49,599 nucleotides of DNA from contig JAKALS010000005.1 of assembly GCA_021813145.1 (NCBI GenBank), positions 74,022-123,620 of the forward strand. The letters are read 5' to 3'. This stretch comes from a bacterium. GTDB lineage: Bacteria; Patescibacteriota; Microgenomatia; Levybacterales; UBA12049. Both the position numbers and the translations under genes were made by a program. The notes beneath the pieces were generated by a model that made no database searches, was not told where the DNA came from, and saw only the letters and a program-made list of their open reading frames with translations. This document shows, piece after piece, positions 2,917 through 47,994 of this stretch. Within the stretch, counting starts at the first letter, position 1. Each line of letters opens with the position of its first letter.

Positions 2917-5445
2917 ATGCTTGGAAATCTATTTACTACAAAAAAATATGTCGGCGAAGAAGCACCCCCTGTTTTAAATAATCAGCCTGTTCAACAACCC
3001 CCACAAATACAACAACAGGAAAAAGACATTGTAGGCTCTTCCATGACTCCCGTGACCCGCCAGGATTTATCGGTTCTTTCGCATCTTGACACAAGGGCTT
3101 CCGCCGTTTTGTCGCAAGCCGAAAAAGAGGCAAAAAGAATCAAGCAGTCGTTGATAGAACCCGAGCAGATTTTAATAGGTCTTACTTTTGACGGCGAAAT
3201 ATTTTCCCTGCTTTCCAAATTTTCGGTAAATGTCGCGGCTTTGTCGTCGGAAATAAGTTCAAAAGAAAAAACGGGAACTTTTGAAGGGAGTCCGACTTTA
3301 AGTGAAATATCAAAACAGATTTTTGAAAAAGCTTATTCGATGGTAAAAGAAAGGGGAGTCGAATTCGTAAGCCCCGAGGATTTGCTGGTCGCGCTTTTCG
3401 AGCAGAATGTTTCGGTTTCCTCGCTTCTGCGGTCTCAGGGTATTGAGAAAGATAAGATAGAAGCGGAACTGACAAAGTCCACAAGCTTTGTCTACGGAAA
3501 AAAATCCGCTCTTGAGACATACGGATTAGACTTAACCGAAGAGGCAAAAAACGGCGGACTGGACCCGATAACGGGAAGAGACAGGGAGGTCGAAAGAGTA
3601 GTCCACATACTTTTAAGAAGAAGTAAAAATAACCCGATTATCATAGGAGAGGCGGGAGTAGGCAAAACTGCAATAGTAGAAGGATTGGCCCAGGAAATAG
3701 TTACCGGAAAAGCCCCAAAAGATTTACAGAACAAAAAAATAATACAGCTTGATTTGTCGTCTATGGTTGCGGGAGCGTCTCATCGGGGGGAATTTGAGGA
3801 AAGGCTAAGGAGCGTAATAAAAGAAACCCAGGCGGCCGGAAATGTGATACTTTTTATAGACGAAATACATACATTAATAGGGGCCGGCGATACGGAGGGT
3901 GCTTTGGACGCTTCGAACATCATAAAACCCTTTTTAGCAAGAGGACAACTTCAATTAATAGGGACTACAACGACAATGGAGTATAGAAAGCATTTTGAAA
4001 AAGACAAAGCATTCGAGAGAAGGTTCCAGCCGGTAACCGTCGACGAGCCGGACGAAGAAACTGCAGTTTTGATGCTTAACGTCTTAAAACAAAAATACGA
4101 AAATTTCCATAAAGTTGTAATAACGCCGGAGGCGATAAGCGCGTCGGTGAAACTTTCCAAAAGATATATCGGAGAAAGATATCTCCCGGACAAGGCCGTA
4201 GACTTACTCGACGAAGCAGCCGCAGAGGTGAGACTGGAAGACCAGAACGGGAAAAGGGCAAATAATAACGTTACCGAAGAAGACGTCCAAAAAATAGTAT
4301 CAAGCTGGACCGGGATTCCAATAACAAAACTCACCGAAAACGAGAGCGAAAAGCTCCTGCACCTGGAAGATCTTATCCATAAAAGGCTGATAGACCAGGA
4401 AGTTGCGGTTTCGACCGTAGCCGAGGCGGTAAGAAGAGGAAGAATAGGCCTTTCAAATGCCAACAGGCCGATTGCCTCGTTTATTTTCTTAGGCCCTACC
4501 GGTGTGGGAAAAACGGAGCTGGCAAAAACCCTCGCATCGATACTTTTCGGAAAAGAAGAGGCGATGATAAGGCTTGATATGAGCGAATACATGGAAAAGC
4601 ACGAAGTCGCAAAATTAATAGGAGCCCCTCCCGGATATGTAGGTTACGAAGAAGGCGGGCAACTGACCGAAGCGGTAAGGGCAAAGCCTTACTCGATAGT
4701 TCTTTTGGACGAGGTTGAAAAAGCACACCCCGACGTATTTAATATTTTACTCCAGCTTTTGGAAGACGGGAGGCTTACCGATAACAAGGGAAACACTGTC
4801 TCATTCAAAAATACGATCGTTATAGCAACTTCAAATATTGGAAGCGCTTTAATCCAGCAGCAGCTTTCCCAAGCTTTTGCCCAGGCGCCGGGAGAATCGC
4901 AGGAAGAATTGGAAAAGAAGAAATTCGATGATCTGTCAAAAATTCTTGTGGGAGAGCTCAGGAAGTTTTTCAGGCCGGAACTTTTAAACAGATTTGACGG
5001 GGTGGTGATTTTTGAGCCCCTGGCCCAAAAAGATATGGTTGAAGTCGCAAAACTTCAGGCGGAAGGAACGAGGAAGCTTTTGTTAGCCCAGGATATCGAC
5101 ATGGAACTTTCACAAAACGCACTTTCACAGCTTGCAAAAGAAGGCTACGATCCCGTCTACGGGGCAAGGCCTCTAAGAAGGCTGATACAAACGGGGATAG
5201 AAAATCCGATAGCCGTTCTTATAATCAATAAAACTTTCCAAAAAGGGGATAAGATTCTCGTCGACTACGACGCGGCAAAAGACGAATTTACGTTTACAAA
5301 ATCGGTACAGGTAGCGCCTCAGGAATTACCCCAAAATAACGGAGTAGAGCAACCGGTAATAAAAGAAGTTCCTCCGCCTTATCAGGATCCCGTTCAACCG
5401 GACGGAACGCAAATGCAGCCGCAAAATTCCCAAAATTCTTTATGA
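2917..5445 (+). CDS. Clp/Hsp100-family double-ring AAA+ ATPase lacking the coiled-coil M-domain
   Basis: 842 aa with a Clp_N-like repeat. D1 has Walker A GEAGVGKTAIVEGLAQ and Walker B ILFIDEIHTL. D2 has Walker A GPTGVGKTELAKTLA, Walker B IVLLDEVEKAH and sensor-2 GARPLRR. The D1-D2 junction is short (LDEAAAEVRLEDQNGKRANNNVTEEDVQKIVSSWTGIP). There are Q/P-rich N- and C-terminal extensions. Confidence 0.9.
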   Translation: MLGNLFTTKKYVGEEAPPVLNNQPVQQPPQIQQQEKDIVGSSMTPVTRQDLSVLSHLDTRASAVLSQAEKEAKRIKQSLIEPEQILIGLTFDGEIFSLLSKFSVNVAALSSEISSKEKTGTFEGSPTLSEISKQIFEKAYSMVKERGVEFVSPEDLLVALFEQNVSVSSLLRSQGIEKDKIEAELTKSTSFVYGKKSALETYGLDLTEEAKNGGLDPITGRDREVERVVHILLRRSKNNPIIIGEAGVGKTAIVEGLAQEIVTGKAPKDLQNKKIIQLDLSSMVAGASHRGEFEERLRSVIKETQAAGNVILFIDEIHTLIGAGDTEGALDASNIIKPFLARGQLQLIGTTTTMEYRKHFEKDKAFERRFQPVTVDEPDEETAVLMLNVLKQKYENFHKVVITPEAISASVKLSKRYIGERYLPDKAVDLLDEAAAEVRLEDQNGKRANNNVTEEDVQKIVSSWTGIPITKLTENESEKLLHLEDLIHKRLIDQEVAVSTVAEAVRRGRIGLSNANRPIASFIFLGPTGVGKTELAKTLASILFGKEEAMIRLDMSEYMEKHEVAKLIGAPPGYVGYEEGGQLTEAVRAKPYSIVLLDEVEKAHPDVFNILLQLLEDGRLTDNKGNTVSFKNTIVIATSNIGSALIQQQLSQAFAQAPGESQEELEKKKFDDLSKILVGELRKFFRPELLNRFDGVVIFEPLAQKDMVEVAKLQAEGTRKLLLAQDIDMELSQNALSQLAKEGYDPVYGARPLRRLIQTGIENPIAVLIINKTFQKGDKILVDYDAAKDEFTFTKSVQVAPQELPQNNGVEQPVIKEVPPPYQDPVQPDGTQMQPQNSQNSL

Positions 5446-7304
5446 ACCTTAAAAAGTTCAAAAATTTTTTAATTAAACGGAAAACTTATTTTATTTTGGG
5501 GATAATAATTTTTATTCTTTTTGTTGTTTCTTCGGCTTTTCTAATAAATACTCTTAAAACAAAAGAAACGGCAGACAAAACTTGGCAGATAGAAGTTAAC
5601 TACAGCCACAGCAAAAAAAAATTTTCGCTATCAAAAATAAGCCTTATAAACGGGAAATACATTCCGGATCAAAGAGCGGCTTTATATTCCCCTTACAATC
5701 TAAAAGTTTTTGATAATAGCGGAAAAGAAATCTTTTCCGAGAAGGTTAATCTTTCCCAGGAGATACTCTACGATTATTTCAACAGCGCTTCGGCGAGCTC
5801 TTCTTTTACGAATGATGTTAAATCGGTATTTTTTGTTCCTTTCGGTGCAGATTCCTCGAAAATAATTATCTACAAAGGCAATACGGATATCCTGGAAATA
5901 AATCTTCCCAAAAAAACCTCTTACGGTTTTACTCCTAAGGCATATGCCCAAACCGCCAGTATTTCCTGCGGCCCCGTAACTACGGTTTTTATAAACGATA
6001 ATTATACAAATACCAATCAGTTTAAATCGGATGTTTCTTATCTTGAAAATCTATACAACACGACCCCTCCTTATAACGTAAGCCCGAGTATTTTCGATTT
6101 TAAAGAAGTGGACCAGGCGCAAAACTTCGGCTGTGCAACTTCGGGGATAAAATGGTGTATAGAAAATAAGATTTCCAATATAAAAACAGCGGGTCTTGCC
6201 TCTTATCCTTCCGCGCAAAAATTTATAGTATTGGTAAATAACCCCAATGCTTTGTCGGTTGACGGGGGGCTCGCTGGCCTTGTCAACGGAGTGGGGGGAG
6301 ATACGATAATCTATACGAATTTTATATACCCGGGTCCTACGGGCGCAAAGCCCTTTGCCGCCGCTTCCCATGAGCTTGAAGGACACGCAGTCGGTTACCT
6401 TTGGGACAGATACGTTTCAAGCGATCCCAATTATTCTTCGATACCCGCCGGGTTTCCGCAAAGCAACTGCTCGACGGGTCCCCAGGGTGAAAGTTTCTGG
6501 CCCCAGGCGGGTTCAACGGGAGTTTACAAAGGGTGCGCGAACGGCAGCCAGTACGCTCCGTATCCTTTAACCTGCCGGTCGCAAACTCCCGCTTTAATAA
6601 GCGGAGGGACAAACAATACGATAATGAGTGCGATAGGTTGTTCGCCGAATGAGTTCGACCCGGTCGAGCAGGCGTGGATTAAAAATAATATTCTTCCTTA
6701 TTACAAACCCTGTTCGGGAGGACCTGTCCAGACAATTTCTCCAAGTCCCGTTCCGACAACTTCCCCTTCTTTGACTCCCTCGCCGACTGGTTCTCCGACT
6801 CCTGTTCCCGTTGTGCATTCCATAAACGGAAATGCTTTTGTCGATTCGAACAACAACGGCCAAAAAGACAGCAACGAACAAAATTTTCAAGGTCTTACGG
6901 TCACACTTTCCGGCCCCTATTCCGGTTCTTTGGTAACAGACTCTTCGGGAAATTATTCATTTAGTAACGTCCCCGAAGGACAATACACGATAAGCGCTAA
7001 TGATTCTTATTATCATATTAGCTTTGGCTCCCATACATTTACGGTAACCGCAAACACCCTGGCGTTTACAATAAATTTTCCCATTCCTCCTTCGGCGTTG
7101 AATACCCCAACGGCCGAACCCACGCTGGTTTCTCCCTCTCCAACACAAAGTCCCGCGCCTTTCCCGACTATCCAGGCAACAGAGGTGACTCCCACTCCTG
7201 CTCCTATTCCTTCGGCCGCAAGTTATACCTGTGTTTTTGATCCTTCATGTCAAACGGGGCAAAGCTCCATCCAGATATGTCCTTTAAAATGCACTCCGAA
7301 TTAA
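5442..7304 (+). CDS. membrane-anchored secreted protein with M64-like (atypical) and Cna-B/SdrD-like domains
   Basis: 620 aa, with an ATGA overlap onto the upstream gene. TM anchor YFILGIIIFILFVVSSAFLI. The segment FIVLVNNP..VDGGLAG..(x)..SHELEGHAVGYLWDRY is reminiscent of Peptidase_M64 but reads HExxxH. PT/SP linkers (PSPVPTTSPSLTPSPTGSPTPVP). Cna-B-like signature DSNNNGQKDSNEQNFQGLTVTLSG..SGNYSFSNVPEGQYT. Confidence 0.5.
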   Translation: MNLKKFKNFLIKRKTYFILGIIIFILFVVSSAFLINTLKTKETADKTWQIEVNYSHSKKKFSLSKISLINGKYIPDQRAALYSPYNLKVFDNSGKEIFSEKVNLSQEILYDYFNSASASSSFTNDVKSVFFVPFGADSSKIIIYKGNTDILEINLPKKTSYGFTPKAYAQTASISCGPVTTVFINDNYTNTNQFKSDVSYLENLYNTTPPYNVSPSIFDFKEVDQAQNFGCATSGIKWCIENKISNIKTAGLASYPSAQKFIVLVNNPNALSVDGGLAGLVNGVGGDTIIYTNFIYPGPTGAKPFAAASHELEGHAVGYLWDRYVSSDPNYSSIPAGFPQSNCSTGPQGESFWPQAGSTGVYKGCANGSQYAPYPLTCRSQTPALISGGTNNTIMSAIGCSPNEFDPVEQAWIKNNILPYYKPCSGGPVQTISPSPVPTTSPSLTPSPTGSPTPVPVVHSINGNAFVDSNNNGQKDSNEQNFQGLTVTLSGPYSGSLVTDSSGNYSFSNVPEGQYTISANDSYYHISFGSHTFTVTANTLAFTINFPIPPSALNTPTAEPTLVSPSPTQSPAPFPTIQATEVTPTPAPIPSAASYTCVFDPSCQTGQSSIQICPLKCTPN

Positions 7305-32220: not shown

Positions 32221-34461
32221 TTAGGGGGTAGTTGTCGGTGTAGGGCTCGGTAGTATGGAAGGGATTACCGAAGGAGAAGGACCAGCTGTTCCCCTGGGAG
32301 TAGCGGATGGTTTTATTGAAGGACTCGGTGATGTCTTCGGACTTGGAGTCGGACTTGCTTTTGGACTTGCGCTTGCGGAAGGGCTGGGGCTTATGGAAGA
32401 GCTCGGCGAAGGTGAAGGACTCTTAGACGGAGAAGGCGAGGGAGAGGGGGAAGACGAGGGGGACGGAGAAGGCGAGGGGGAGGGAGTTGTAACCGTTATG
32501 CCGGGAACGGGGACCTGTCTTGGAGCCAAATTACTGTAGGGAGCGGGAGTTTTGGGAGGGGGAGTAAATCCGAAAATTATTATTCCGGCTCCTAGGGCAA
32601 GCATTGCAAGAAGAACCCACATTGCGGCAGAACTTTCCGTTATTCCCGTTCCCGCCTGGGCGGGGGCTCTTTGGGGAGGAGTATATTCGCTTGTGCTAAT
32701 AAGACTGTAGACGGGTGCGGAAAAAAACAATCCTCCCTGCCAAACTAGCAAAATTGCCAGGGTAAAAATAAGAAGGCTTTGCCTGAAGAATATAAAACCG
32801 AAAGCCGCCGCAAAACAGATTATTGCTATCAGCATTTCCGATTCGGTTGACCTTATCGCGCTTAAAATTTTTAATTTGGGGTTTGCTTTTTGCGTCCTTA
32901 AAAAAACTCCGTTTCGCTGTATCAGACCCTGGACACTGCCAAGTGTAATTGCCCATCCGAAACTGAAAAAGTTAGACATTGCGGAAATAGAATCCCTTGT
33001 ACTAAGCCCTAAGGCATTTTTTAATACCCATACGAATCTCCAAAGACCCGTAAACAAGAGTACGGTAGGGATAAGAATGAGGGGAGTCCTAAAAGGAATA
33101 AATCCCTGGATCTGTGGATAAAGGCTTAATATTCCTCCTAAAATCAGGAAAAATGCAAAAAATAAATTCAAAAGGTCGTTGTACCACTGCAGGCCTCCGG
33201 CAAGGTAATAATATTTCTGTGCAAATGTAAGTTTATTTGAAGGGTCTACCATGCCGGACCAGGGGAGAAGTGCTTCCCAGTGTTTTTTTAATATCTGTAT
33301 TCCTCCGAAACACCACCTGAACCGCTGCTTTTTAAATTCGTCGAAAGTTAAAGGCATCAAACCTCTTCCGTAGCTTTTATCAATATACAAAGATTGGTAA
33401 CCGAGTTTTAAAATCCTTAGGCTTGCCTCGGCGTCTTCGGTAATACACCATTCGTCCCAGCCTCCGATTTCTAAAAGCACGGACTTTCTTAAAAGTCCCA
33501 TTGTTCCCGCAAAAATTATTGCATTCCTTTCGTTTCTAGACTGCATGGAAACGCTGAAAAAATATTTGTATCCAAGGTAAGCCGCCCTAAAAAATGAATT
33601 GGCTGCGCTTCTTCTGTAGTCCTGCGGAGTTTGGACAAAAGCAATTTTTTCGTCATGAAAAAAGGGAATAAGGTCTTTTAAAAAATTCGGTTTTACTTCG
33701 TAGTCGGAATCTATAACTCCTATAACCTCGGCATCTTTTGAGGTTTGGGACAGGGCAAAATTTAATGCCCCTGACTTGTATCCCGGCCAGTCGGACAAAT
33801 GGAAAAATTTGAATCTGTCGCCCAAACGTTTGCAGGCCTCTTCCAAAGGCTGCCAGGTTTCTTTTTGGGGAGTGTTGTTGTCTATTACTATGATTTCGTA
33901 ATTTTCGTAGTCAAGCTTTGCCAGAGTCTCAAGGGTTCTTATTACTATATCGGCAGGCTCGTTATAGCAGGGAAGGTGAAGGGAAACTTTCGGAGCGTAA
34001 GTTGTTCTTGAAAGCTCTCTTACTTTTCTTCGCCAGCGGGACCTGCAAAGAGTATCCAAAGCTTCAAATGCGTATGAAAGCGTTAAAAAAAGCGCAAACG
34101 TTTCTATAAGGAAAAATATAAGGGCCAGGGTATACCCCAATACATTTGCGGTTGCAAAAGCCGTAATTCCGAAGGAGTAGACAAGATAAATAACTATAAG
34201 GGTAAAAAGGTGTGTCCATGCCGCTTTAGCCAGAAAATTCCAGTCGGGTAAAAGCAAAATCCATACAACCCCCTCTATTGCTATAAGTCCGTAGAGGATA
34301 TATTCGTTTTTGACAAAAAAAGCTCCTATTCCTATTGTTATTAGAAGCCACAAAAGAGAAATAACAGGACTTGAAATCCGTGTTTTTACACCAAAAAGTA
34401 CAAGAGGCACAAAACTTACAACAAACAATATGGCAGATAGGTATAAAGCATCGGTTAACAT
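32221..34461 (-). CDS. processive family-2 glycosyltransferase (cellulose/chitin/PNAG-synthase-like) with SP-repeat tail
   Basis: N-terminal TM helices, a GT2 core (VSLHLPCYNEP, IIVIDNNT, VIDSDY, ITEDAE), the QxxRW motif QRFRWCFGG, C-terminal TM helices, and a tail PSPSPSPSPSSSPSPSPSPSKSPSPSPSSS... Confidence 0.85.
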   Translation of the reverse strand: MLTDALYLSAILFVVSFVPLVLFGVKTRISSPVISLLWLLITIGIGAFFVKNEYILYGLIAIEGVVWILLLPDWNFLAKAAWTHLFTLIVIYLVYSFGITAFATANVLGYTLALIFFLIETFALFLTLSYAFEALDTLCRSRWRRKVRELSRTTYAPKVSLHLPCYNEPADIVIRTLETLAKLDYENYEIIVIDNNTPQKETWQPLEEACKRLGDRFKFFHLSDWPGYKSGALNFALSQTSKDAEVIGVIDSDYEVKPNFLKDLIPFFHDEKIAFVQTPQDYRRSAANSFFRAAYLGYKYFFSVSMQSRNERNAIIFAGTMGLLRKSVLLEIGGWDEWCITEDAEASLRILKLGYQSLYIDKSYGRGLMPLTFDEFKKQRFRWCFGGIQILKKHWEALLPWSGMVDPSNKLTFAQKYYYLAGGLQWYNDLLNLFFAFFLILGGILSLYPQIQGFIPFRTPLILIPTVLLFTGLWRFVWVLKNALGLSTRDSISAMSNFFSFGWAITLGSVQGLIQRNGVFLRTQKANPKLKILSAIRSTESEMLIAIICFAAAFGFIFFRQSLLIFTLAILLVWQGGLFFSAPVYSLISTSEYTPPQRAPAQAGTGITESSAAMWVLLAMLALGAGIIIFGFTPPPKTPAPYSNLAPRQVPVPGITVTTPSPSPSPSPSSSPSPSPSPSKSPSPSPSSSISPSPSASASPKASPTPSPKTSPSPSIKPSATPRGTAGPSPSVIPSILPSPTPTTTP

Positions 34462-35535: not shown

Positions 35536-35907
35536 ATGAAATTTGGAGATTATTTCAGACAATTACGGATAGCTAGGGAAATGACTCTTCGAGGATATTG
35601 TGAGCGATTTGGGCAAGACCCATCAAATATTAGTAGACTGGAGAATGGCAAACTAAATCCTCCTAAAGACGTTGGGAAATTGAAAGGTTATGCTATTTCT
35701 CTTGGATTAAAAGAAAATACAAAGGAATGGATTAATTTTTTTGATTTGGCATATCAAGCCAACAAAGAACTTCCCAAAGAAATTAAAGAGGAAGTCCCTG
35801 AAGTAATTGCCTTATTACCGGCATTTTTAAGAACGGGGAATAATAAGAAAATAAATAAAGAAAAGGTTAAAAAACTTATTAAATTTCTGGAAAAAGGCGG
35901 AGAGTAA
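35536..35907 (+). CDS. XRE-family HTH transcriptional regulator
   Basis: FGDYFRQLRIAREMTLRGYCERFGQDPSNISRLENGKLNPP is the HTH_3 pattern. 123 aa. Confidence 0.85.
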   Translation: MKFGDYFRQLRIAREMTLRGYCERFGQDPSNISRLENGKLNPPKDVGKLKGYAISLGLKENTKEWINFFDLAYQANKELPKEIKEEVPEVIALLPAFLRTGNNKKINKEKVKKLIKFLEKGGE

Positions 35908-35908
35908 T

Positions 35909-36502
35909 ATGACTGTTTCTCCGGCTAAACCTCTTACTTATAAACAGATAATTAAAATCGCGGAAGGTTTCTTAAAAGAACACTACTCTTCATTAAGGAT
36001 TCCAATTCCGATTGAGGAAATAATTGAATTGGAATTAGGAATTAAGATAACCGCTTACAATGGTCTTAAGAAAAATTTCGATATCGACGGATTTTTATCC
36101 GGTGATTGTAGTGAGATAGTAATCGACAACGGTGTTTTTATAAAATTTAAAGAAAGAGCTAGATTTACTTTGGCACATGAATTAGGTCATAGTGTTCTTC
36201 ATAGAGAACTATATGAGCACTTGAATTTTAAAACTCCTGAAGATGTAGTAAATTTTCAGGATGCAATTTCTGAAGAAAATTATGGGTGGTATGAGTATCA
36301 GGCAAATGTTTTTGCTGCCGGACTCCTTGTTCCTTCAGAAATTCTGAAAATAGAATACGATCTTGCTGTTAAGGAAATAAAGAAAATAAATAAAGAAGAG
36401 GAATTTATTGTTCCCTATTTAGAATCTTTGTTAAATAAATTTGAGGTTTCAAGTTATGTTTTGATTCAGAGATTAAGAAAAGAACACTTATTAGGCTCTT
36501 AG
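35909..36502 (+). CDS. ImmA/IrrE-family (COG2856, M78) zinc metallopeptidase
   Basis: The HEXXH motif sits in RFTLAHELGHSVLH, with a downstream EYQANVFAAGLLVP. The gene starts 1 nt after the XRE stop, and a GGAG lies 8 nt upstream. Confidence 0.85.
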   Translation: MTVSPAKPLTYKQIIKIAEGFLKEHYSSLRIPIPIEEIIELELGIKITAYNGLKKNFDIDGFLSGDCSEIVIDNGVFIKFKERARFTLAHELGHSVLHRELYEHLNFKTPEDVVNFQDAISEENYGWYEYQANVFAAGLLVPSEILKIEYDLAVKEIKKINKEEEFIVPYLESLLNKFEVSSYVLIQRLRKEHLLGS

Positions 36503-36526: not shown

Positions 36527-36976
36527 ATGGACGTAAGTGATGATTACAATTTGATATTCGTCGACTGTGAGGGATACGGCCCAGCTCCTACGCTTAATGA
36601 TGATCGAGCCTTTGAATTTGGAGCAGTTGATTTTAAATCAAAACAGTCATTTCACGGTTATGGCGCAACAAAAAAAACATTTATTAAGTTTAATAAATGG
36701 TTAAATCAATTTAAAGGCAGACTTATATTCGTAAGCGATAATCCAGCCTATGATTGGCAATTTATAAACTATTATTTCCATAAATTTCTTAGTGTAAATC
36801 CGTTTGGCCATTCAGCCAGGAGAATATCTGATTTCTACGCTGGTATGAACGGGGATTTCTTTGATTCGACCGGATGGAAGAAATGGAGAAAAACTCCACA
36901 TGATCACAATCCAGTTCACGATGCCCTTGGTAACGTGGAAGCCTTCACAAAAATTTTAGAGATGGGGAAAAAATAA
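36527..36976 (+). CDS. small DEDDh (DnaQ-like) 3'-5' exonuclease
   Basis: ExoI is IFVDCEGYG, ExoII is VSDNPAYDWQFINYYF, and ExoIII is HNPVHDALGN (H-x4-D). 149 aa, similar in layout to Rv2179c-type exoribonucleases. Confidence 0.7.
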   Translation: MDVSDDYNLIFVDCEGYGPAPTLNDDRAFEFGAVDFKSKQSFHGYGATKKTFIKFNKWLNQFKGRLIFVSDNPAYDWQFINYYFHKFLSVNPFGHSARRISDFYAGMNGDFFDSTGWKKWRKTPHDHNPVHDALGNVEAFTKILEMGKK

Positions 36977-37085: not shown

Positions 37086-38267
37086 TTATAAATCGGTTGC
37101 TGAAATGGAGTTTATATTGTTATTGAAATCTAATGAAACGATATAGGCTTCTTTTAGGTTCAAGGGCTGTGATTTCCTTTTTAAATATTCCATATCACCA
37201 AGTGAAAAAGTAAGCTTAGCTTCCAAAGCAGTTTTTTCGTCAACGATAAAATCTATTTCGCTTTTTCCTTCCTTGTTATAGTAATGCAGGGTAAAATAAG
37301 GTCTTAGGTTTTGAAAAACGCTTTGCTCAAAAAGCTGCCCTAAAGATATTTTCCCAAGTATATTAGCAATGCCGCTGTCGCAAAGGAATAATTTTTTTCC
37401 TCCAGATGATTGACGGTCAATGCTTTTTGAAAACTTCGATAATAACGAAATAAAATATGTTTGTTCAAGGAAATATAGATAGTTATATACCGTTTCTCGC
37501 GATAGAGAAAGACTAGAAGCAAGCTTTGCAATTTCTATGCGTTGTCCTATACGTGGAACTAAAAGTAAAATTAAGTCTCTGAGTTTTGCCATATCTTTAA
37601 AATCGGCCAGATTTTTGGCATCTTTTTCAAAATACGAAGTAAAAATCTCCTCCAAAAGAATTTTTTTTCTTTCTCTGTTTTCCTCCAACACTATTGCGGG
37701 AAATCCGCCAAACTCAATATATTCGTTATAATACTTTTTGTATTGCTCGAAGTTTATTTTATTTTTGCCTTTTATCTTTTCCTCAAAAGTCGAAAAATAT
37801 TTTTTTTCTACCCCTTTAAAACGTAGGAATTCAGAAAAAGTTAGTGGATATAATTCGAGCACAACTTTCCTTCCGCTAAGTGATTCAGGGAAAAGGTTCT
37901 TAAGATAATAGCTGCTTGACCCGGTGAGCACGAATTTAATATCAAAATGGTCATATAGATACTTAATGGCGGTGCTGATAGTCGGTAAGTTCTGTATCTC
38001 ATCAATAAAAAGATATGCCTTTTCTTTATTAGTTATGCCATATTGAGCTAAATTATTCCAAATATTATCATAGTTTTCTTCCTCAAAAACATGTCTGTGC
38101 AAGGGATTTTCCAGGTCAAAGATCGCTTTATTTTTGGATACTATTGAATCAAAAAGGCGAACTAGAAGTGTGGTTTTACCGACTCTTCTCATACCCGTGA
38201 TTACGGTTACCTCCTTTTTATCGAGTTCCTGCTCAAGTTTTGGTAAAATATTTCTTGGGATAAACAT
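37086..38267 (-). CDS. AAA+ ATPase with C-terminal DUF4143 (COG1373-type)
   Basis: Walker A VITGMRRVGKTTLL, Walker B YLFIDEIQNLP, and a C-terminal SEIDFIVDEK..LEAK PD-(D/E)xK-like segment typical of DUF4143. Confidence 0.8.
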   Translation of the reverse strand: MFIPRNILPKLEQELDKKEVTVITGMRRVGKTTLLVRLFDSIVSKNKAIFDLENPLHRHVFEEENYDNIWNNLAQYGITNKEKAYLFIDEIQNLPTISTAIKYLYDHFDIKFVLTGSSSYYLKNLFPESLSGRKVVLELYPLTFSEFLRFKGVEKKYFSTFEEKIKGKNKINFEQYKKYYNEYIEFGGFPAIVLEENRERKKILLEEIFTSYFEKDAKNLADFKDMAKLRDLILLLVPRIGQRIEIAKLASSLSLSRETVYNYLYFLEQTYFISLLSKFSKSIDRQSSGGKKLFLCDSGIANILGKISLGQLFEQSVFQNLRPYFTLHYYNKEGKSEIDFIVDEKTALEAKLTFSLGDMEYLKRKSQPLNLKEAYIVSLDFNNNINSISATDL

Positions 38268-38419: not shown

Positions 38420-39472
38420 TTATATTTTCTTGTATCTTATTGCAGAACCTTCGCCTATTCTTTCTATCTTTTTCATCTCAATAAGCTTTGTCAATACCTG
38501 ATTGACTGTAGGTCTGGCAACATGGGCTTTTTGTGCTATTTCATTGGGACTAGCTTCATTTACGGTTTGCAAATATTCCCATACAGATAATTGTTTTGGG
38601 GAAAGAAGTGCCTCAATGTTTTCGGCAGTCAAAAGTCCGATTGCCATCTGCGATTGCATCGTAATAATAGAAAGGAAGAAAGTTAACCAAGCAGTAATAT
38701 CAGGGTTTTTTGCATTGAATGTTTTCTGGCTTTGTCTAAGGGCAAGGTAGTACTCCGGTTTATTATCTTCGATCAGTTTTTCGTGTGAAACATAGGGCAT
38801 ATACAAATAGCCTTGTTGTAACAGAAGCATGTTTGTTAAAATGCGCGACAATCTACCGTTTCCGTCTTGGAACGGGTGGATATTTAGAAATTCGACAATA
38901 AAGTTGCCGATGACGAAAAGCGGATGGTATTTCCTTTCTTCAAGAGTTTGTATCGTCCAATCTGTAAGCTCCTTCATTTTTATCGGGGTTAGGTAGGCTG
39001 GAGTAGTGTCAAAAAGGATACCTACCGAATTTCCAGCCTCATCGATCATTTCTACCTTATTTTCAGTATGTTTATAGTCGCCTCTGTGTAACTCGTCTTT
39101 TTCAACGTATTTGAGAAGTTCTTTATGGAAATGTTTTATAAGGCTCTCGTTAAAATGTAAATCTTCCCAGGTGTCAAAAACGTTTTGAAGTAACTCATAG
39201 TAACCTTTTACTTCCTGTTTATCTCTGTTGCTGAATTTTTGAACCGATATGCCACGAAGCATCTTTTCGATGTCTTCATCAGACATTTTAGCTCCCTCGA
39301 TACGTGTTGATGCCCCCGAAGACGTAACGAGTACGGAACGCTTAAGCCTCCCAAGTGTTTGCGGGCTCAAATTAGATCCGGCAATCCATCTGCCTTTTAA
39401 CTCTTCAATTTGGGCAATTTCTGCCAAAATTTCATGGGTAATGTTTTTTAGTCTCAGATCAAAATCTGTCAT
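38420..39472 (-). CDS. Fic-family protein (class-II-like) with C-terminal winged HTH
   Basis: Fic motif HPFQDGNGRLSRILTN. The N-terminal inhibitory-helix motif is STRIEG, i.e. (S/T)xxxE(G/N). The C-terminal wHTH is EASPNEIAQKAHVARPTVNQVLTKLIEMKKIERIG. Confidence 0.85.
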   Translation of the reverse strand: MTDFDLRLKNITHEILAEIAQIEELKGRWIAGSNLSPQTLGRLKRSVLVTSSGASTRIEGAKMSDEDIEKMLRGISVQKFSNRDKQEVKGYYELLQNVFDTWEDLHFNESLIKHFHKELLKYVEKDELHRGDYKHTENKVEMIDEAGNSVGILFDTTPAYLTPIKMKELTDWTIQTLEERKYHPLFVIGNFIVEFLNIHPFQDGNGRLSRILTNMLLLQQGYLYMPYVSHEKLIEDNKPEYYLALRQSQKTFNAKNPDITAWLTFFLSIITMQSQMAIGLLTAENIEALLSPKQLSVWEYLQTVNEASPNEIAQKAHVARPTVNQVLTKLIEMKKIERIGEGSAIRYKKI

Positions 39473-39480
39473 ACGCTTGA

Positions 39481-39510
39481 TATATATAAGATTATATAAG
39501 GTTATATAAG
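39481..39510. repeat. three tandem 10-bp units (TATATATAAG ATTATATAAG GTTATATAAG)
   Basis: Read directly from the sequence. The units overlap the -10 of the reverse-strand Fic promoter. Confidence 0.8.
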
Positions 39511-39519
39511 ATAAGTCAA
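39491..39519 (-). promoter_or_regulatory. promoter of the first Fic gene (TTGACT-17-TATAAT)
   Basis: On the reverse strand, TTGACT is at 39514-39519 and TATAAT at 39491-39496, separated by a 17-nt spacer. The ATG lies 18 nt downstream of the -10. Confidence 0.55.
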
Positions 39520-39554: not shown

Positions 39555-39725
39555 TCTGACAGATAATAGTTTCACTAAACCGTACATTTTTACTGCTTTC
39601 TGAACGTAAAAGATTATTTACGTAGAGAGATACGACTTCTATCGCAGAAGAAATTAAAACTCGAATAACAATAGGCTTCTATTCCATATAACTTAATTAA
39701 AGCAGGATCTTACCCGTCTGATATA

Positions 39726-39798
39726 TGACAACTTTCTTTACAACAATAAATTGATACTTGACAACGTAGTTTACAACTATATCTAGAAAGTTGACAAC
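39726..39798 (+). promoter_or_regulatory. iteron-like array: TGACAAC-N5-TTACAAC units with 33-bp period
   Basis: TGACAAC occurs at 39726, 39759 and 39792, and TTTACAAC at 39737 and 39770. The last TGACAAC doubles as the -35 of the downstream promoter. Confidence 0.6.
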
Positions 39799-39819
39799 TA
39801 TAATTTTTTCAGATATAAT
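39791..39819 (+). promoter_or_regulatory. consensus sigma70 promoter (TTGACA-17-TATAAT), leaderless geometry
   Basis: TTGACA at 39791-39796, a 17-nt spacer, and TATAAT at 39814-39819. The ATG at 39826 is only 6 nt downstream. Confidence 0.7.
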
Positions 39820-39825
39820 ACTTGT

Positions 39826-40854
39826 ATGGAAATTAATGATTTGATTCTCGATATAGCTAATAAGAATAAGACTTTCAAAACCGCCGATGTTGTGAAGCGG
39901 CTGGGTGGAAGATATACGAGACAATATATAAGCTCCAAAATCAGCAAAATGGTTAAAGATAAATTGCTTTTAAAAGGCGGAAGTACGTCTGGTGCTTTTT
40001 ATGCGTTGCCTTCAAATTCCGATCAAGTATTTGAGAACATAAGGCTAAGATTTTTGAGAGACTCGGTAGAGGAACATAGGGTATTCAATAATATTAGAGA
40101 TAGATACAAGTTAATTCAAGAGCTCCCCGAAAACGTTTCTAGCTTACTTTTTTATGGATTTACGGAGATGTTGAATAATGCAATCGAGCATTCTGAATCG
40201 AAGTATGTTGAAATTGAGGTGTTCATAGATAATAAAAATTTAACATTTGTTATTAACGATTTTGGAGTTGGTGTATTTCGTAACGTTATGGAAAAAAGGG
40301 GCTTAAAATCGGAGCTAGAAGCCATGCAAGATTTACTGAAGGGAAAAACAACTACGCAGCCTCATTCCCACACCGGAGAAGGTATATTTTTTACTTCTAA
40401 AGTTGCTGATTTATTTGAGTTAGATAGCTATGGTTTCAAAATGAGAGTGGATAATATAGTGGAAGACATTTTTTTTCAGGAAACCAAAGAAATAAAGAAA
40501 GGGACCAGGGTAACATTTTCAATTGCTATCAACTCGAAAAAACACCTTAATGATGTGTTTGGAAAATATGTAACTGAACCAGGAGAAGTGGGTTTTGATA
40601 AAACAGAAATATTAGTAAGACTATTTATCCAAGGGAATGTGTATATTTCCCGCTCTCAAGCGAGGAGAATATTAACCGGTCTTGATAAGTATAAAACAGT
40701 TGTTTTGGATTTTGATAAAGTTACGACCGTAGGACAAGCATTTGCGGATGAGATATTTAGAGTGTTCCAACAAAGGTATCCTGAGATAAAAATTGAGCCT
40801 ATTAATACTTCAGATCCAGTGAAGTTTATGATAGATAGGGTTGAGAAGCCTTGA
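39826..40854 (+). CDS. wHTH - GHKL (RsbW/SpoIIAB-like) ATPase - STAS-like (DUF4325) fusion protein
   Basis: N-terminal wHTH (FKTADVVKRLGGRYTRQYISSKISKMVKDKLLLK). N box EMLNNAIEHS, G1 box INDFGVGV, G2 box HTGEGIFFTSK. The C-terminal VVLDFDKVTTVGQAFADEIFRVF is the DUF4325/STAS-like pattern. Confidence 0.7.
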   Translation: MEINDLILDIANKNKTFKTADVVKRLGGRYTRQYISSKISKMVKDKLLLKGGSTSGAFYALPSNSDQVFENIRLRFLRDSVEEHRVFNNIRDRYKLIQELPENVSSLLFYGFTEMLNNAIEHSESKYVEIEVFIDNKNLTFVINDFGVGVFRNVMEKRGLKSELEAMQDLLKGKTTTQPHSHTGEGIFFTSKVADLFELDSYGFKMRVDNIVEDIFFQETKEIKKGTRVTFSIAINSKKHLNDVFGKYVTEPGEVGFDKTEILVRLFIQGNVYISRSQARRILTGLDKYKTVVLDFDKVTTVGQAFADEIFRVFQQRYPEIKIEPINTSDPVKFMIDRVEKP

Positions 40855-40896
40855 TTTCTTTATCTACCGCACTGGGAACTATTTTTTCCTTTTTTT

Positions 40897-40920
40897 GTCG
40901 TAATACAAGGTTTTTACGAC
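40897..40920. repeat. hairpin-repeat family member H5
   Basis: GTCGTAATACAAGGTTTTTACGAC, with stem GTCGTAA/TTACGAC. It lies between two convergent genes. Confidence 0.8.
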
Positions 40921-40925
40921 GTAAA

Positions 40926-41900
40926 CTAAATTTCGCTGATAATATCAAATCCCTTAAAGCTTCCGGTTATCGCCAATCCAATTATTTCTCCGTTTACCAA
41001 GTTTTTATCCTTAATTTTTTTTGCTGTTTCGTTCATTGTTGCGCCGGATCCTACAGCATCATCTATAAGAAGAACATTTGTATACTTTTTTTTATCATCT
41101 ATTATGATTGTTCTTTTTGCATTCTCAACCCTGTCCTCAAGTTTTGAAAGAGTCTTCTGGGGTACAATTATTTCCGTTTTTATTTTAGTTACGGACACAG
41201 CCCTTGTTGGGAGGTCGAGCTGCTTTTCCAACTCCTTCATGAACTGGATTTCTCTCTTTACGGTTGGAGGAACAAAAAGTATGCCGTCAATCTTATTTTC
41301 TTTTATGACCCCTAGTATTTCAGGACGGATTTGATTTATAAGTCGACTAATTAGTCCCACGTTCTGGCTTTGTTTGGCATATAAAAGCATTTGCCCAAGT
41401 TTAGTTTTTCCGAATCTTTCTATGCTATAAAAGTCAAGATAATAAAGCTTATCAAGATAGACGTCCTTAAATGTATTTTTCATTTTTGGCATTCCGTTTA
41501 TGAGGCCGTTTTTCTTAAATTTATCAAACTTGTTGATTGTGGAAATATATTCTCTTGCAGTTTTTGTTGGATCCTGATTGGTTTTTTCGCACCAGGCAAG
41601 AAATCCTTCCCATCCCTGTCGTTCTTCACCAGTGGGGGAGATATACAAGTACCTATCATTTATTAAGTTAACGTTTGCCTTATCAAATAATACCGGTTTG
41701 GATATTTTTTTAGATGCTAGTGAGTAATATACCTTAGGCGGTTTGCCGACTTTCTCCAGTTTGCTTTCGTCAATTAGTTTATTAAGCTGTCTATGTACAG
41801 AGGCTCGGGTTATACCGAGTACTCCGGTAAGCTCATGTACACTCACCTGATTATGTAACTTGATATACTCCAAAATTTTACCTCTAGTATTAGTAATCAT
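40926..41900 (-). CDS. wHTH - ComF-like phosphoribosyltransferase (PRTase) domain protein
   Basis: N-terminal wHTH (ILEYIKLHNQVSVHELTGVLGITRASVHRQLNKLIDESKLEKVG). The C-terminal PRPP-binding loop is VLLIDDAVGSGATMNETAKKI, preceded by ILFVPPTVKREIQF, as in the ComFC/amidophosphoribosyltransferase family. Confidence 0.7.
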   Translation of the reverse strand: MITNTRGKILEYIKLHNQVSVHELTGVLGITRASVHRQLNKLIDESKLEKVGKPPKVYYSLASKKISKPVLFDKANVNLINDRYLYISPTGEERQGWEGFLAWCEKTNQDPTKTAREYISTINKFDKFKKNGLINGMPKMKNTFKDVYLDKLYYLDFYSIERFGKTKLGQMLLYAKQSQNVGLISRLINQIRPEILGVIKENKIDGILFVPPTVKREIQFMKELEKQLDLPTRAVSVTKIKTEIIVPQKTLSKLEDRVENAKRTIIIDDKKKYTNVLLIDDAVGSGATMNETAKKIKDKNLVNGEIIGLAITGSFKGFDIISEI

Positions 41901-41907
41901 GGTATAC

Positions 41908-41936
41908 AGTATACAGTATAGTGTATACTATGTCAA
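41908..41936 (-). promoter_or_regulatory. promoter of the wHTH-PRTase gene (TTGACA-17-TATACT), leaderless geometry
   Basis: On the reverse strand, TTGACA is at 41931-41936 and TATACT at 41908-41913. The ATG (41898-41900) is 7 nt downstream. The promoter is embedded in GTATAC-rich repeats (ACAGTATAC x2 and AGTGTATACT). Confidence 0.6.
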
Positions 41937-41957
41937 TATCCCTATTCGCAAACCAAA
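41910..41957 (+). repeat. 48-bp direct repeat, copy B
   Basis: TATACAGTATAGTGTATACTATGTCAATATCCCTATTCGCAAACCAAA is 40/48 identical to 35398-35445, in the same orientation. Confidence 0.8.
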
Positions 41958-43142: not shown

Positions 43143-44273
43143 ATGCAAAAGCTTCGAAAAATTTTCTTCGTTGTTGCAAGTGGTGGTCACGAAACTGAAA
43201 GACATTACATTGATACTATTGAAAGAAAAAGATCAATTGATGAAGCAGAAAAATTTTTAAGACCTCAAGAAATTGAGATTCTTAAAAACACATATCACAG
43301 TGGACCATTCGCAGTATGGGGCGCTGTACCCGGTTCGGGTAATTTAAGGACATGGGAAACGATGGAAGCTGGTGATTATGTATTAATTTATAAATCTGGA
43401 AGAATAATTTTTGCCGCAGAAGTTGCATTAAAAACCAGAAATCCTCAGATGGCAAAATATCTTTGGGGAGAAGACAACAATGGCAATACTTGGGAATATA
43501 TGTATTTTCTTATAAACACACAAGAAGCGGATGTAAGTATGTCTGTGTTAAATCCCTATCTCGGATATTCTGAAAATTATTTCCCCCGAGGATTTATGGC
43601 AATCGAACAAGAGAAGGCAAACGAGTTACTTAATCATTATGGGGATGTACTTTCCGCAATCACAACAATGCAACAGGGGAAAAGGCTGAAAAAAATTGCA
43701 GAAAAGGCGAAACAAGAAGCAGAAGAATTTAACGAGAGGATTGAAAGAGCACCAACAGAACATGACGAAATGCAGTGGAGATTAATAAGAATTGGTAAAA
43801 AAGCACATATAGATGTTTGGGTTCCGCAAAATGATCAAGGGAAAAGTTATCAAGGTCATAAGTTTAAAGATGATGTTTTGCACGATTTTCAAGAAACATT
43901 AGATGTCCCAAATTATATAAAAAATATTGACGTTGTTTGGAAGTTTGGACTTTCAATAAAATCTGCTTTTGAAATTGAACACTCAACCTCGGTATATTCA
44001 GGGATATTAAGGCTTTCTGATTTAAAAGCATTAACTCCAAATTCGATCTATCCAATGTTTATTGTTGCGGATAGAGACAGACGAAGTAAGGTTTTTGCAG
44101 AACTTAAAAGGCCAACTTTTAATAATCCATATCTTAATTTGGCAGATGCAATAGGATATTTGTCTTATGATAAAGTACGAGAAATTGACGAGAGTACAAA
44201 AGGCCAGAATGCAAATATATCAATTGATTTTTTGGTCCAACAAAGCGAAAAGATAAGCAAAAATGAAAATTAG
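43143..44273 (+). CDS. putative modification-dependent nuclease: PUA/EVE-like N-domain + PD-(D/E)xK-like C-domain
   Basis: The N-domain FAVWGAVPGSGNLRTWETMEAGDYVLIYKSGRIIFAAEV is an EVE/PUA-like pattern. The C-domain has EHDEMQWRLIRIGKKAHIDVWVP..IDVVWKFG..SAFEIEHSTSVYSGILRLSDL, a restriction-endonuclease-like core. Assigned from pattern memory only. Confidence 0.45.
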   Translation: MQKLRKIFFVVASGGHETERHYIDTIERKRSIDEAEKFLRPQEIEILKNTYHSGPFAVWGAVPGSGNLRTWETMEAGDYVLIYKSGRIIFAAEVALKTRNPQMAKYLWGEDNNGNTWEYMYFLINTQEADVSMSVLNPYLGYSENYFPRGFMAIEQEKANELLNHYGDVLSAITTMQQGKRLKKIAEKAKQEAEEFNERIERAPTEHDEMQWRLIRIGKKAHIDVWVPQNDQGKSYQGHKFKDDVLHDFQETLDVPNYIKNIDVVWKFGLSIKSAFEIEHSTSVYSGILRLSDLKALTPNSIYPMFIVADRDRRSKVFAELKRPTFNNPYLNLADAIGYLSYDKVREIDESTKGQNANISIDFLVQQSEKISKNEN

Positions 44274-44961
44274 AGACGCCATCCTCTCTTACCGCGAAAT
44301 GTGTGATTTGGAAAATGTCCAAACACTCCAGCGGGGAATGAACTTTAGATTAAATCCTCTTTATTCAGTAATTTTGATGTCTCAAAGAACGAACGCCCCC
44401 TATAAAGATAAAATTTATGATGATGGAATAACAATTGAATATGAAGGACATGACGTTTCTAAAAAGGATTATTTTCATAATCCAAAAACTGAAGATCAAG
44501 TAGAACTTTTGCCATCTGGAAATCTTACACAAAATGGAAGGTTTATAAATGCCGTTAAAGAATACAAAAAAGGAATGCAAAATCCCGAGCTTATAAAAGT
44601 TTACGAAAAAATTATGAACGGTGTTTGGTCGTTAAAGGGAATTTTTGAACTTGTTGACTATAAAGTAGTAAATGATGGACGTAGAAACGTTTTTCGTTTT
44701 ATTCTAAAGCTTACAAATTTAGGAAACGTTGAAAATAAAAAGCAAACAATAGAAATTTCGCAAACAAGAATTATCCCAACAGAAGTGAAGAAGGAGGTTT
44801 GGAAAAGGGATATGGGGAAATGTGTTTTATGTGGCTCAAAAGAAAATTTGCATTTTGATCATGATTTGCCTTATTCAAGAGGCGGCACAAGTTTATCTGC
44901 GAAAAATGTCAGATTACTGTGCATGAAACATAATCTTCAAAAATCCGACAAGATTGAATAA
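44263..44961 (+). CDS. HNH endonuclease with N-terminal reader-like domain (McrA-type architecture)
   Basis: C-terminal HNH: CVLCGSKENLHFDHDLPYSRGG..NVRLLCMKHNLQKSDK. The N-terminal ~170 aa (RGMNFRLNPLYSVILMSQRTNAPYKDKIYDDGITIEYEGHD) recalls the YS[LV][VI]L..Y.DD..G...Y.G segment of SRA/PUA-like readers. It overlaps the upstream gene by 11 nt. Confidence 0.7.
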   Translation: MKIRDAILSYREMCDLENVQTLQRGMNFRLNPLYSVILMSQRTNAPYKDKIYDDGITIEYEGHDVSKKDYFHNPKTEDQVELLPSGNLTQNGRFINAVKEYKKGMQNPELIKVYEKIMNGVWSLKGIFELVDYKVVNDGRRNVFRFILKLTNLGNVENKKQTIEISQTRIIPTEVKKEVWKRDMGKCVLCGSKENLHFDHDLPYSRGGTSLSAKNVRLLCMKHNLQKSDKIE

Positions 44962-47058: not shown

Positions 47059-47994
47059 ATGGATAATAAATTACAATTATTAAAGACTAAAAAACAATGG
47101 TTAGAAAACTATAAACCATTTCCAAAAGAGATTGAAATAAATCTCCAGGAATGGTTTCGTATTGAATTAACGTATACATCTAATGCTATTGAAGGTAATA
47201 CTTTAACTCGTCAGGAAACTGCTTTAGTAGTCGATGAAGGATTAACAGTTGAGGGTAAAAGCTTAACTGAGCATCAGGAGGCAATAAATCATTCTTTGGC
47301 CTTAGATTATATTTATGCCCTGGCAAATCAAAAACAGAAGTTAAGTTTAAATGAAATATTAGAAATTCATAATATTATTCTTAATAAAATTGATGATTCT
47401 AATAAAGGTAGATTGCGAACGGTTTCAGTAAGACTTAAAGGATCTGAAACAATTTTGCCAAATCCACTAAAAGTTCCCGAATTAATGAATGATTTTGTTA
47501 TTTGGCTTCAGGATGAAGACCAGAATGATCCAATTAAATTTGCGATAGATGCACATTTTAAATTCGTCACTATTCATCCGTTTGTTGATGGGAATGGTAG
47601 GGTTGGACGATTATTAATGAATTTGTTATTAATAAGAGCAGGATATCCACCAGCAATTATTCGAAAAGAAGATAGAAATGAATACGTAAAATCTTTGGAA
47701 AAAGGTCAAACCAAAGAAGAAATGGATGATTATTATACTTTAATGATTAATGCTGTAGATAGATCGTTAGATATATATCTCGAAGCGTTAAATCCGAAGG
47801 AAGAAAATGTAAATGAAATTCAAGAAAAAAGGTTTCTTACTACTGATGAAGTTGCAAAATTACTACAGGTAGATCCGGAGAGTGTTAGGCGTTATGTAAG
47901 ACGCGGTGATTTAAAAGCAGTAAAATTAGGTGGTAAATTTATTAGAATTGAAAAAGTAGATTTAAATAAGTTCATCGAAAAACTCAAAAAATAA
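47059..47994 (+). CDS. Fic-family protein (class-II-like) with C-terminal excisionase/MerR-type HTH
   Basis: Fic motif HPFVDGNGRVGRLLMN and inhibitory motif SNAIEG. The C-terminal LTTDEVAKLLQVDPESVRRYVRRGDLKAVKLGGKFIRI is the HTH_17 pattern. Confidence 0.85.
   Translation: MDNKLQLLKTKKQWLENYKPFPKEIEINLQEWFRIELTYTSNAIEGNTLTRQETALVVDEGLTVEGKSLTEHQEAINHSLALDYIYALANQKQKLSLNEILEIHNIILNKIDDSNKGRLRTVSVRLKGSETILPNPLKVPELMNDFVIWLQDEDQNDPIKFAIDAHFKFVTIHPFVDGNGRVGRLLMNLLLIRAGYPPAIIRKEDRNEYVKSLEKGQTKEEMDDYYTLMINAVDRSLDIYLEALNPKEENVNEIQEKRFLTTDEVAKLLQVDPESVRRYVRRGDLKAVKLGGKFIRIEKVDLNKFIEKLKK

Follow-up and report, generated by a model that had tools for sequence, protein, structure and literature searches.

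Contig JAKALS010000005.1 (assembly GCA_021813145.1) carries, within the 49,599-nucleotide (nt) stretch analysed here (positions 74,022 to 123,620; hereafter the window), two genes that we call A and B, which lie tail to tail with a spacer of 71 nt between them. A encodes a 342-residue protein composed of a winged helix-turn-helix domain (wHTH), a SpoIIAB/RsbW-like GHKL domain and a STAS-like DUF4325 domain; B, on the opposite strand, encodes a 324-residue protein in which a wHTH precedes a ComF/PsyrT-class phosphoribosyltransferase (PRTase) core. We consider it very probable that A and B are independent, self-repressed single-gene modules. The fuller version of this reading, which we hold with somewhat less confidence but still favour, is that they are unrelated and independently mobile accessory modules, each a new arrangement of known parts. 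Their adjacency is probably a matter of chance, in a low-G+C accessory island of a Microgenomates/Levybacteria-like genome within the Patescibacteria. Members of this group, also known as the Candidate Phyla Radiation (CPR), have tiny genomes with few recognised defence or regulatory systems. Both open reading frames (ORFs) have exactly the coordinates given in an earlier note on this DNA; they and their parts are as follows.

39826..40854, plus strand: ORF A, 342 residues, wHTH, SpoIIAB/RsbW-like GHKL domain and STAS-like DUF4325 domain
39826..40011, plus strand: A residues 1-62, predicted wHTH with helices 3-13, 19-25 and 32-44 and a two-strand wing at 49-60 (model, alignment)
40027..40575, plus strand: A residues 68-250, GHKL ATPase/kinase domain (Pfam, alignment, fold match, hhalign)
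40600..40851, plus strand: A residues 259-342, STAS-like DUF4325 domain (Pfam, alignment, model, fold match)
40926..41900, minus strand: ORF B, 324 residues, wHTH, conserved alpha/beta 'hood' region and ComF/PsyrT-class PRTase core
41715..41900, minus strand: B residues 1-62, MarR/ArsR-type wHTH with recognition helix TRASVHRQLNKLI (Pfam, fold match)
40929..41684, minus strand: B residues 73-324, homologous to the PsyrT C-terminal domain (PADLOC, alignment, fold match)
39719..39825, plus strand: promoter/operator region of A (motif search; operator motif kept upstream of 73 homologues)
41901..41942, minus strand: promoter/operator region of B (motif and repeat search)
40855..40925, no strand: spacer between the two convergent genes, containing a single imperfect inverted repeat (40892-40903 / 40914-40925) that is no canonical terminator

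Domain architecture of the two proteins

For A, the composition proposed in the earlier note, a wHTH followed by an RsbW/SpoIIAB-type GHKL domain and DUF4325, is borne out by the agreement of Pfam profiles, fold matches and invariant N, G1 and G2 boxes. The profile search places DUF4325 over residues 279-333 with an E-value of 1.5e-15, and HATPase_c_2 is matched exactly at its gathering score (E=3.7e-6). In a Foldseek comparison of an AlphaFold (AF2) model, which was built on 54 homologues and has a predicted local distance difference test score (pLDDT) of 81, the best PDB matches of the GHKL domain are to SpoIIAB (1l0o/1til; E 7e-6, template modelling score 0.68-0.75) and then to RsbW, while the C-terminal domain matches RsbV-sized chains and eukaryotic STAS domains. 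Invariant among the 54 homologues are E114, N117 and N118 in the N box EMLNNAIEHS, the G1 box D145xGxG (here D145-F-G-V-G), and G184-E-G186 in the G2 box, which in A reads G184-E-G-I-F-F; the lid, KGKTTTQPHSH, is of low confidence. When the A profile was compared by hhalign with a SpoIIAB reference, E114 and N118 fell on E46 and N50, and D145 on the G1 aspartate, D81 (E 0.0055).

The N-terminal domain of A has no Pfam match; its assignment as a wHTH comes from the H-H-H-beta-beta topology of the model, is also supported by weak tblastn cross-matches, and places the invariant residues R32 and Q33 within it. In the STAS-like domain, T301-V-G303-Q304 are invariant and lie at the N-terminus of helix 304-317. 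We infer that T301 may be the topological equivalent of Ser58, the phospho-acceptor of SpoIIAA; the proposal derives solely from its place two residues before the helix-2-capping G303, since the A profile yielded no hhalign alignment of this domain with SpoIIAA. Sequence searches of PDB chains with A, B and the A profile returned nothing significant, and a BFVD fold search revealed no viral protein of A's architecture. Among the PHROGs, A has only a weak match of unknown function, and B has matches to its wHTH.

The reading of B as a wHTH joined to a ComF-like PRTase with an intact phosphoribosyl pyrophosphate (PRPP) loop likewise holds. Its N-terminus matches HTH_24 (Pfam, E=3e-5) and MarR folds. 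PADLOC aligns residues 104-312 with positions 473-682 of the 689-position PsyrT model, that is, with the C-terminal PRTase domain (E=1.5e-16), and gives weak matches to ShosT (E 7e-4) and to the retron family PRTase_III-A (E 4e-6). The Pfam families PRTase-CE and Pribosyltran stay below their cut-offs. The best solved fold is that of Helicobacter pylori ComF (7p0h; E 4.9e-5, 191 aligned columns), with further matches to PyrR, purine PRTases and ShosT (8zvb/8zvd). Residues 73-324 carry the motifs YLDFYSIERFGKTKLGQ, PPTVKRE, PQKTL and DR..N and the PRPP loop LLIDDAVGSGAT, with its aspartates at 280 and 281; the loop LLIDDAVGSGAT (DDAVGSGAT) is invariant in homologues. The two wHTH domains, which had been described as similar, show no mutual similarity in BLASTP, and what is left of that description is a set of weak tblastn matches between the wHTH of B and that of a few A homologues.

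Promoters, operators and predicted self-repression

Each gene has a near-consensus, leaderless promoter of its own with a distinct repeat operator, TT(G/T)ACAAC for A and GTATAC for B, in keeping with the earlier note. The A promoter reads TTGACA-17-TATAAT (12/12; -35 at 39791-39796, -10 at 39814-39819), and since the ATG follows only 6 nt past the -10 hexamer, the transcript should be leaderless. Four TT(G/T)ACAAC sites start at 39737, 39758, 39770 and 39791, the fourth of which contains the -35 hexamer, and two 33-nt direct repeats (39719-39751 and 39752-39784) extend around the operator sites. For B, the promoter reads TTGACA-17-TATACT (11/12; -35 at 41936-41931, -10 at 41913-41908), again leaderless with the ATG 7 nt on, and repeats built on GTATAC, both inverted and direct (41898-41932), lie across the spacer, the -10 hexamer and the start. 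Both families are mostly leaderless: TAnnnT sequences 4-9 nt before the ATG are found in 42 of 51 B homologues and 36 of 73 A homologues, and Shine-Dalgarno-like sequences are rare (3/51 and 9/73, respectively).

These arrangements are conserved within each family. Upstream of 73 A homologues from several phyla, the motif TT(G/T)ACAA(C/T) occurs at 3.12 copies per 100 nt, compared with 0.31 in shuffled sequences, and 51 of the 73 loci have at least three copies; B upstream regions contain at most one strict copy of the A-type motif. The B operator keeps a constant layout across 102 loci, an inverted repeat whose proximal arm is repeated once more in direct orientation immediately next to the ATG, while its half-site varies by subfamily and tracks the recognition helix of the wHTH:

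Half-site GGAACT: recognition helix R-A-(V/I)-R-K-Q (23/23)
Half-sites TGAAC and TCAAC: recognition helix (V/L)-F-K
Half-site GTAAAC: recognition helix V-H-R or V-S-K
Half-site GTATAC: recognition helix (S/A)-(V/T)-H-R-Q

Nothing else in our analysis speaks as strongly for B reading its own promoter as this covariation. On one Levybacteria contig (CAVRKE010000002.1), two B paralogues lie 255 kb apart (loci L008 and L154), with half-sites of the GTTTAT and GGAACT types and recognition helices that differ to match. Such a pair of different operator and helix types on one contig is the pattern expected of insulated modules, and suggests that the two are insulated copies within one cell. In the window itself, both operator types cluster at the promoter of their own gene only. 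The conclusion that A and B would each repress themselves, through an N-terminal wHTH acting on promoter-overlapping repeats, is thus well supported by sequence patterns. The 'hairpin repeats' said to separate the two genes, however, reduce to a single imperfect inverted repeat (40892-40925), whose predicted folding is not significantly stable (z -1.05 and -1.24) and which lacks a T tract.

Independence of the two genes and rival explanations

A scan of 185,579 genomes, one per species, yielded at least 579 A loci and 381 B loci. Both families are patchy and spill over into Omnitrophota, Planctomycetota, Melainabacteria and others, with the nearest relatives of both proteins in Patescibacteria, chiefly Levybacteria and other Microgenomates. 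Searched against 1.84 billion representatives (50%-identity clusters), the A profile matches 2,875 proteins at E <= 1e-3, of which 787 reach E <= 1e-30; of the 150 best matches, nearly all have 335-355 residues and align from end to end. The B family comprises more than 3,500 proteins. In databases, these proteins are named 'DUF4325 domain-containing protein', 'anti-sigma regulatory factor' or 'hypothetical protein'. A tblastn search of plasmids gave for A a single Nostoc homologue of 24% identity in an uninformative context. The A-B locus itself is present in mine-drainage metagenomes (DNA sequencing runs); the partial copies X5 and X6 are low-depth fragments with the same A-B arrangement and provide no test of independence.

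The earlier note had left open whether A and B form a sensor/effector pair or two autonomous single-gene systems, and it is the latter that their neighbourhoods bear out. A tblastn search for the partner in the flanks of 85 A loci and 115 B loci, which extend for up to 10 kb in either direction and total about 2.6 Mb, found both genes together at only one of the 200. At this locus (L189), the order is B, a small ORF (5337-5560) that, judged by eye, resembles a GIY-YIG (UPF0213-type) nuclease, and A, all on one strand, as opposed to the convergent arrangement in the window. Its neighbours carry Bro-N, ORF6N and PRiA4_ORF3, which marks it as a mobile-element hotspot, and A and B each retain their own promoter and operators there. 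Clustering of all flanking ORFs disclosed no conserved partner gene for either family. Even close relatives do not share the genes on the 3' side: two relatives of B (94% and 88% identity) and one of A (81%) have wholly different ones there. The gene most often met near A encodes a Fic-wHTH protein; it lies within 10 kb at 9 of 84 loci, upstream or downstream and on the same or the opposite strand, and is directly adjacent at about 5. Near B, the most frequent is a GT4 glycosyltransferase gene (11 of 55 loci). A two-gene system, in which a partner-switching A senses a cue and controls a PRTase effector B, would explain why the genes adjoin in the window, why they are close again at L189 and why both reside in a conflict-rich island. 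Yet the single shared locus, the changed orientation with an ORF between, the hotspot setting, the closest relatives without a partner and the private promoter and operator of each gene make such a system very improbable; judged by the criterion that the earlier note itself set, it is all but refuted.

A different possibility, to which we assign only a minor share of the probability, is that both are ordinary transcription factors, A gated by ATP or phosphorylation and controlling a distant regulon, and B a PurR-like repressor whose PRTase fold does no more than sense PRPP or nucleotides. Both proteins are indeed predicted to bind their own promoters, PyrR is among the fold matches of B, and Bacillus subtilis PurR and PyrR show that a PRTase fold can serve in sensing or regulation; moreover, many neighbours of the homologues are housekeeping genes, with no defence enrichment seen. 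However, there is no second operator cluster in the 49.6 kb and no conserved context or target operon, and the patchy, cross-phylum spread, the low-G+C island and the genome whose paralogues have orthogonal operators are not what this explanation would lead one to expect. The PRTase of B is, in addition, nearest to the PsyrT/ComF class; a PurR-type repressor was rejected as its identity, as B has no PuR_N match, PurR is absent from the top 50 folds and pur genes are missing from the context. It is hard to see in B the competence protein ComFC of this lineage, serving DNA uptake, and we give this explanation next to no weight: against the best PDB fold, a weak match to the comF model TIGR00201 (E 8e-6), and the plasmid tblastn results, which are weak ComF-like matches only, one of them annotated as a ComF family protein, stand a TIGR00201 score of 25.9 bits for a cut-off of 233.55, a single cysteine and hence no four-cysteine zinc finger of the ComFC kind, a wHTH in the place of that finger, no linkage to com genes, and a family that occurs at only 381 loci in the species scan and in two copies on one contig.

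In the reading we favour, that of independent, self-repressed modules, A and B would share a design in which the N-terminal wHTH binds repeats over its own leaderless, sigma-70-type promoter and thereby represses its own gene. In A, the SpoIIAB-class GHKL domain would bind ATP, dock on the fused STAS-like domain and probably phosphorylate it, with T301 as the candidate acceptor; this partner switch, within one chain or within a dimer, might toggle DNA binding or free the kinase face for another target. In B, the ComF/PsyrT-class PRTase would bind PRPP, either as a tightly dosed toxic or DNA-directed effector in the manner of PsyrT, ShosT and retron PRTases, or as a PRPP-sensing ligand domain, and the fused wHTH would stand in for a separate antitoxin or regulator. 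For both, the most likely role seems to lie not in housekeeping but in conflict or addiction, as accessory genes of variable islands.

A conflict role as such we regard as possible but somewhat doubtful. PRTase domains of the class found in B are toxic effectors, known from ShosTA, PsyrTA and retrons, and their toxicity requires PRPP binding, as does that of ShosT (PMC11961720, PMC12961424). A defence role, which the earlier note had brought into play, is nevertheless not established, while its statement that no named defence system has either architecture stands: A has no PADLOC match, and B resembles PsyrT and ShosT in its PRTase part only and comes without a DprA-like antitoxin. Several further observations weigh against the favoured reading. 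If they did nothing beyond self-repression, A and B would have no evident output, and the operator scan covered 49.6 kb of the genome, so that a distant regulon may exist elsewhere. The proposed equivalence of T301 and Ser58 comes from predicted topology alone, the alignment with SpoIIAA having come out empty. In addition, neither family has a tblastn match among 50,697 phage records. When 149 genes within two positions of the homologues were compared with 150 others at a distance of 6.5 kb or more, a control that is imperfect because it lies inside the same 10-kb flanks, the near neighbours were not richer in defence families than the distal genes (159 versus 220 PADLOC families matched at 1e-10). 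The near set is also heterogeneous, with 186 Pfam families, none of them seen more than 5 times, and many housekeeping genes; matches to restriction-modification, AbiE, Dpd and MADS systems account for 2-3 of the 149 genes each. Two near neighbours strongly match PADLOC PsyrT (E 8e-55) and DpdF (E 5e-84), and are probably superfamily II helicases.

We consider it rather unlikely, if worth stating, that A and B belong to a hitherto undescribed class of conflict modules, each a single protein that represses itself, which would serve immunity or addiction and be widespread in CPR bacteria. The SpoIIAB-type kinase of A would then be kept inactive by its own STAS domain, acting as a fused pseudo-substrate, and be released by a phage or stress cue. 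In B, the wHTH would tether the ComF/PsyrT-class PRTase to DNA, where its target might be the DNA itself or nucleotides bound to it, and no separate antitoxin would be needed because the fused repressor sets the dose. The Fic-wHTH gene next to A would be a third member of this design.

The surrounding island and comparison with known systems

A and B sit within the final 15 kb of the window, where G+C is about 0.33, compared with about 0.42 elsewhere; the fall, from about 0.42 to 0.30-0.35, begins at about 34000, just past a glycosyltransferase gene (32221-34461), and lasts to the window end. No transfer RNA genes were found across the whole window. The island is rich in conflict-related genes, with an XRE HTH and ImmA/IrrE pair, PDC-S01, two Fic genes, and a restriction endonuclease (REase)-like and HNH pair. 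The XRE-type HTH gene (35536-35907) is followed by an M78 peptidase gene of the ImmA/IrrE type (35909-36502) and one for a 149-residue protein without matches (36527-36976), a layout that recalls the ImmR/ImmA regulators of mobile elements and antitoxin systems with a Zn-peptidase, such as RosmerTA. On the minus strand, 37086-38267 encodes an AAA_14 and DUF4143 ATPase, matching the PADLOC candidate PDC-S01 at E 8e-67; this family recurs near A or B at about 5 further loci. The upstream neighbour of A (38420-39472, minus strand) is a Fic protein with a C-terminal wHTH (PADLOC SoFic, E 2e-41). Three direct repeats of TATATAAG, spaced 10 nt apart (39483-39512), overlap its own promoter, TTGACT-17-TATAAT (39519-39491); as this gene, too, combines a wHTH with private promoter repeats, Fic-wHTH, A and B appear to be three consecutive genes of one design. 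Beyond B, at 43143-44961, lie two genes that overlap by 11 nt. One encodes a 376-residue protein that matches phrog_14240 at its N-terminus and resembles a type II REase in its C-terminal part (PADLOC E 9e-12), the other a 232-residue HNH endonuclease; no methyltransferase gene was seen next to the pair. The second Fic protein of the island, fused to HTH_17 (Fic E 1.8e-24), is encoded at 47059-47994.

Both families are large, their architecture is rigidly fixed, and neither has been described before. In the literature we found no description of a wHTH-PRTase or HTH-GHKL-STAS fusion, no mention of 'PRTase-CE' and no link of STAS or anti-sigma modules to phage defence; DUF4325 receives passing mentions only, among them as a prophage accessory gene and in a VapC-like PIN clade that is transcriptionally coupled to DUF4325 genes. 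The natural reference for A is the partner-switching pair SpoIIAB-SpoIIAA or RsbW-RsbV, with which it shares the GHKL Ser/Thr-kinase fold, with N- and G1-box residues aligning with E46, N50 and D81 of SpoIIAB, and probably a STAS-fold partner with a conserved hydroxyl residue predicted to sit where helix 2 begins. Unlike these pairs, A has kinase and STAS domain in one chain, preceded by a wHTH, its STAS domain is of the DUF4325 type and not alignable with SpoIIAA by sequence, and its output appears to be its own promoter. Neither a sigma factor nor a PP2C phosphatase is conserved at the 85 A loci or occurs among the top neighbour Pfam families. If the proposed mechanism is true, A would be the first partner-switching unit with kinase, antagonist and DNA-binding output in one chain, and a compact system in which to study how STAS-kinase switching is coupled to transcription.

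B shares with the toxins PsyrT (RqlH) and ShosT a PRTase with an intact PRPP loop, and ShosT structures are among its fold matches. Its N-terminus, however, is a wHTH, whereas that of PsyrT is a RecQ-like helicase and that of ShosT a pyrophosphatase, and at the 115 B loci there is no conserved neighbour, nor is DprA among the top neighbour families. An identity as a PsyrTA or ShosTA toxin was rejected, since the PRTase domain matches but the DprA-like antitoxin and the helicase or pyrophosphatase domain are lacking; so was that of a retron type III-A PRTase effector, for which there is only the weak PRTase_III-A match and no conserved reverse transcriptase neighbour. B would extend the toxic PRTase class of PsyrT, ShosT and retrons to an antitoxin-less, self-repressed form. 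With ComFC it has in common its closest solved fold, 7p0h, but it differs in the absent zinc finger, in falling far below the TIGR00201 cut-off and in the absence of a com-gene context. ComFC-like PRTases have repeatedly been coupled to DNA-handling modules (PMC5512222), and the wHTH of B fits this pattern, which would make B a fourth case of a ComF-class PRTase joined to a DNA-binding module and bears on the substrate of these enzymes. The table of helix-operator covariation, in turn, offers a ready-made recognition code for a wHTH family. B follows the design idea of B. subtilis PurR and PyrR, in which a part that binds nucleic acid is combined with a PRTase fold for PRPP or nucleotides; it differs in having no PuR_N match, in its top fold matches, which do not include PurR, and in standing outside any purine or pyrimidine operon. 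In their general plan, A and B come close to the SoFic-type Fic-wHTH proteins and to the autoregulated antitoxins of type II and IV toxin-antitoxin systems (for example AbiEi), which likewise combine a solo enzyme and a wHTH with promoter-proximal repeats, but they carry other enzymatic domains and stand without a separate toxin or antitoxin partner.

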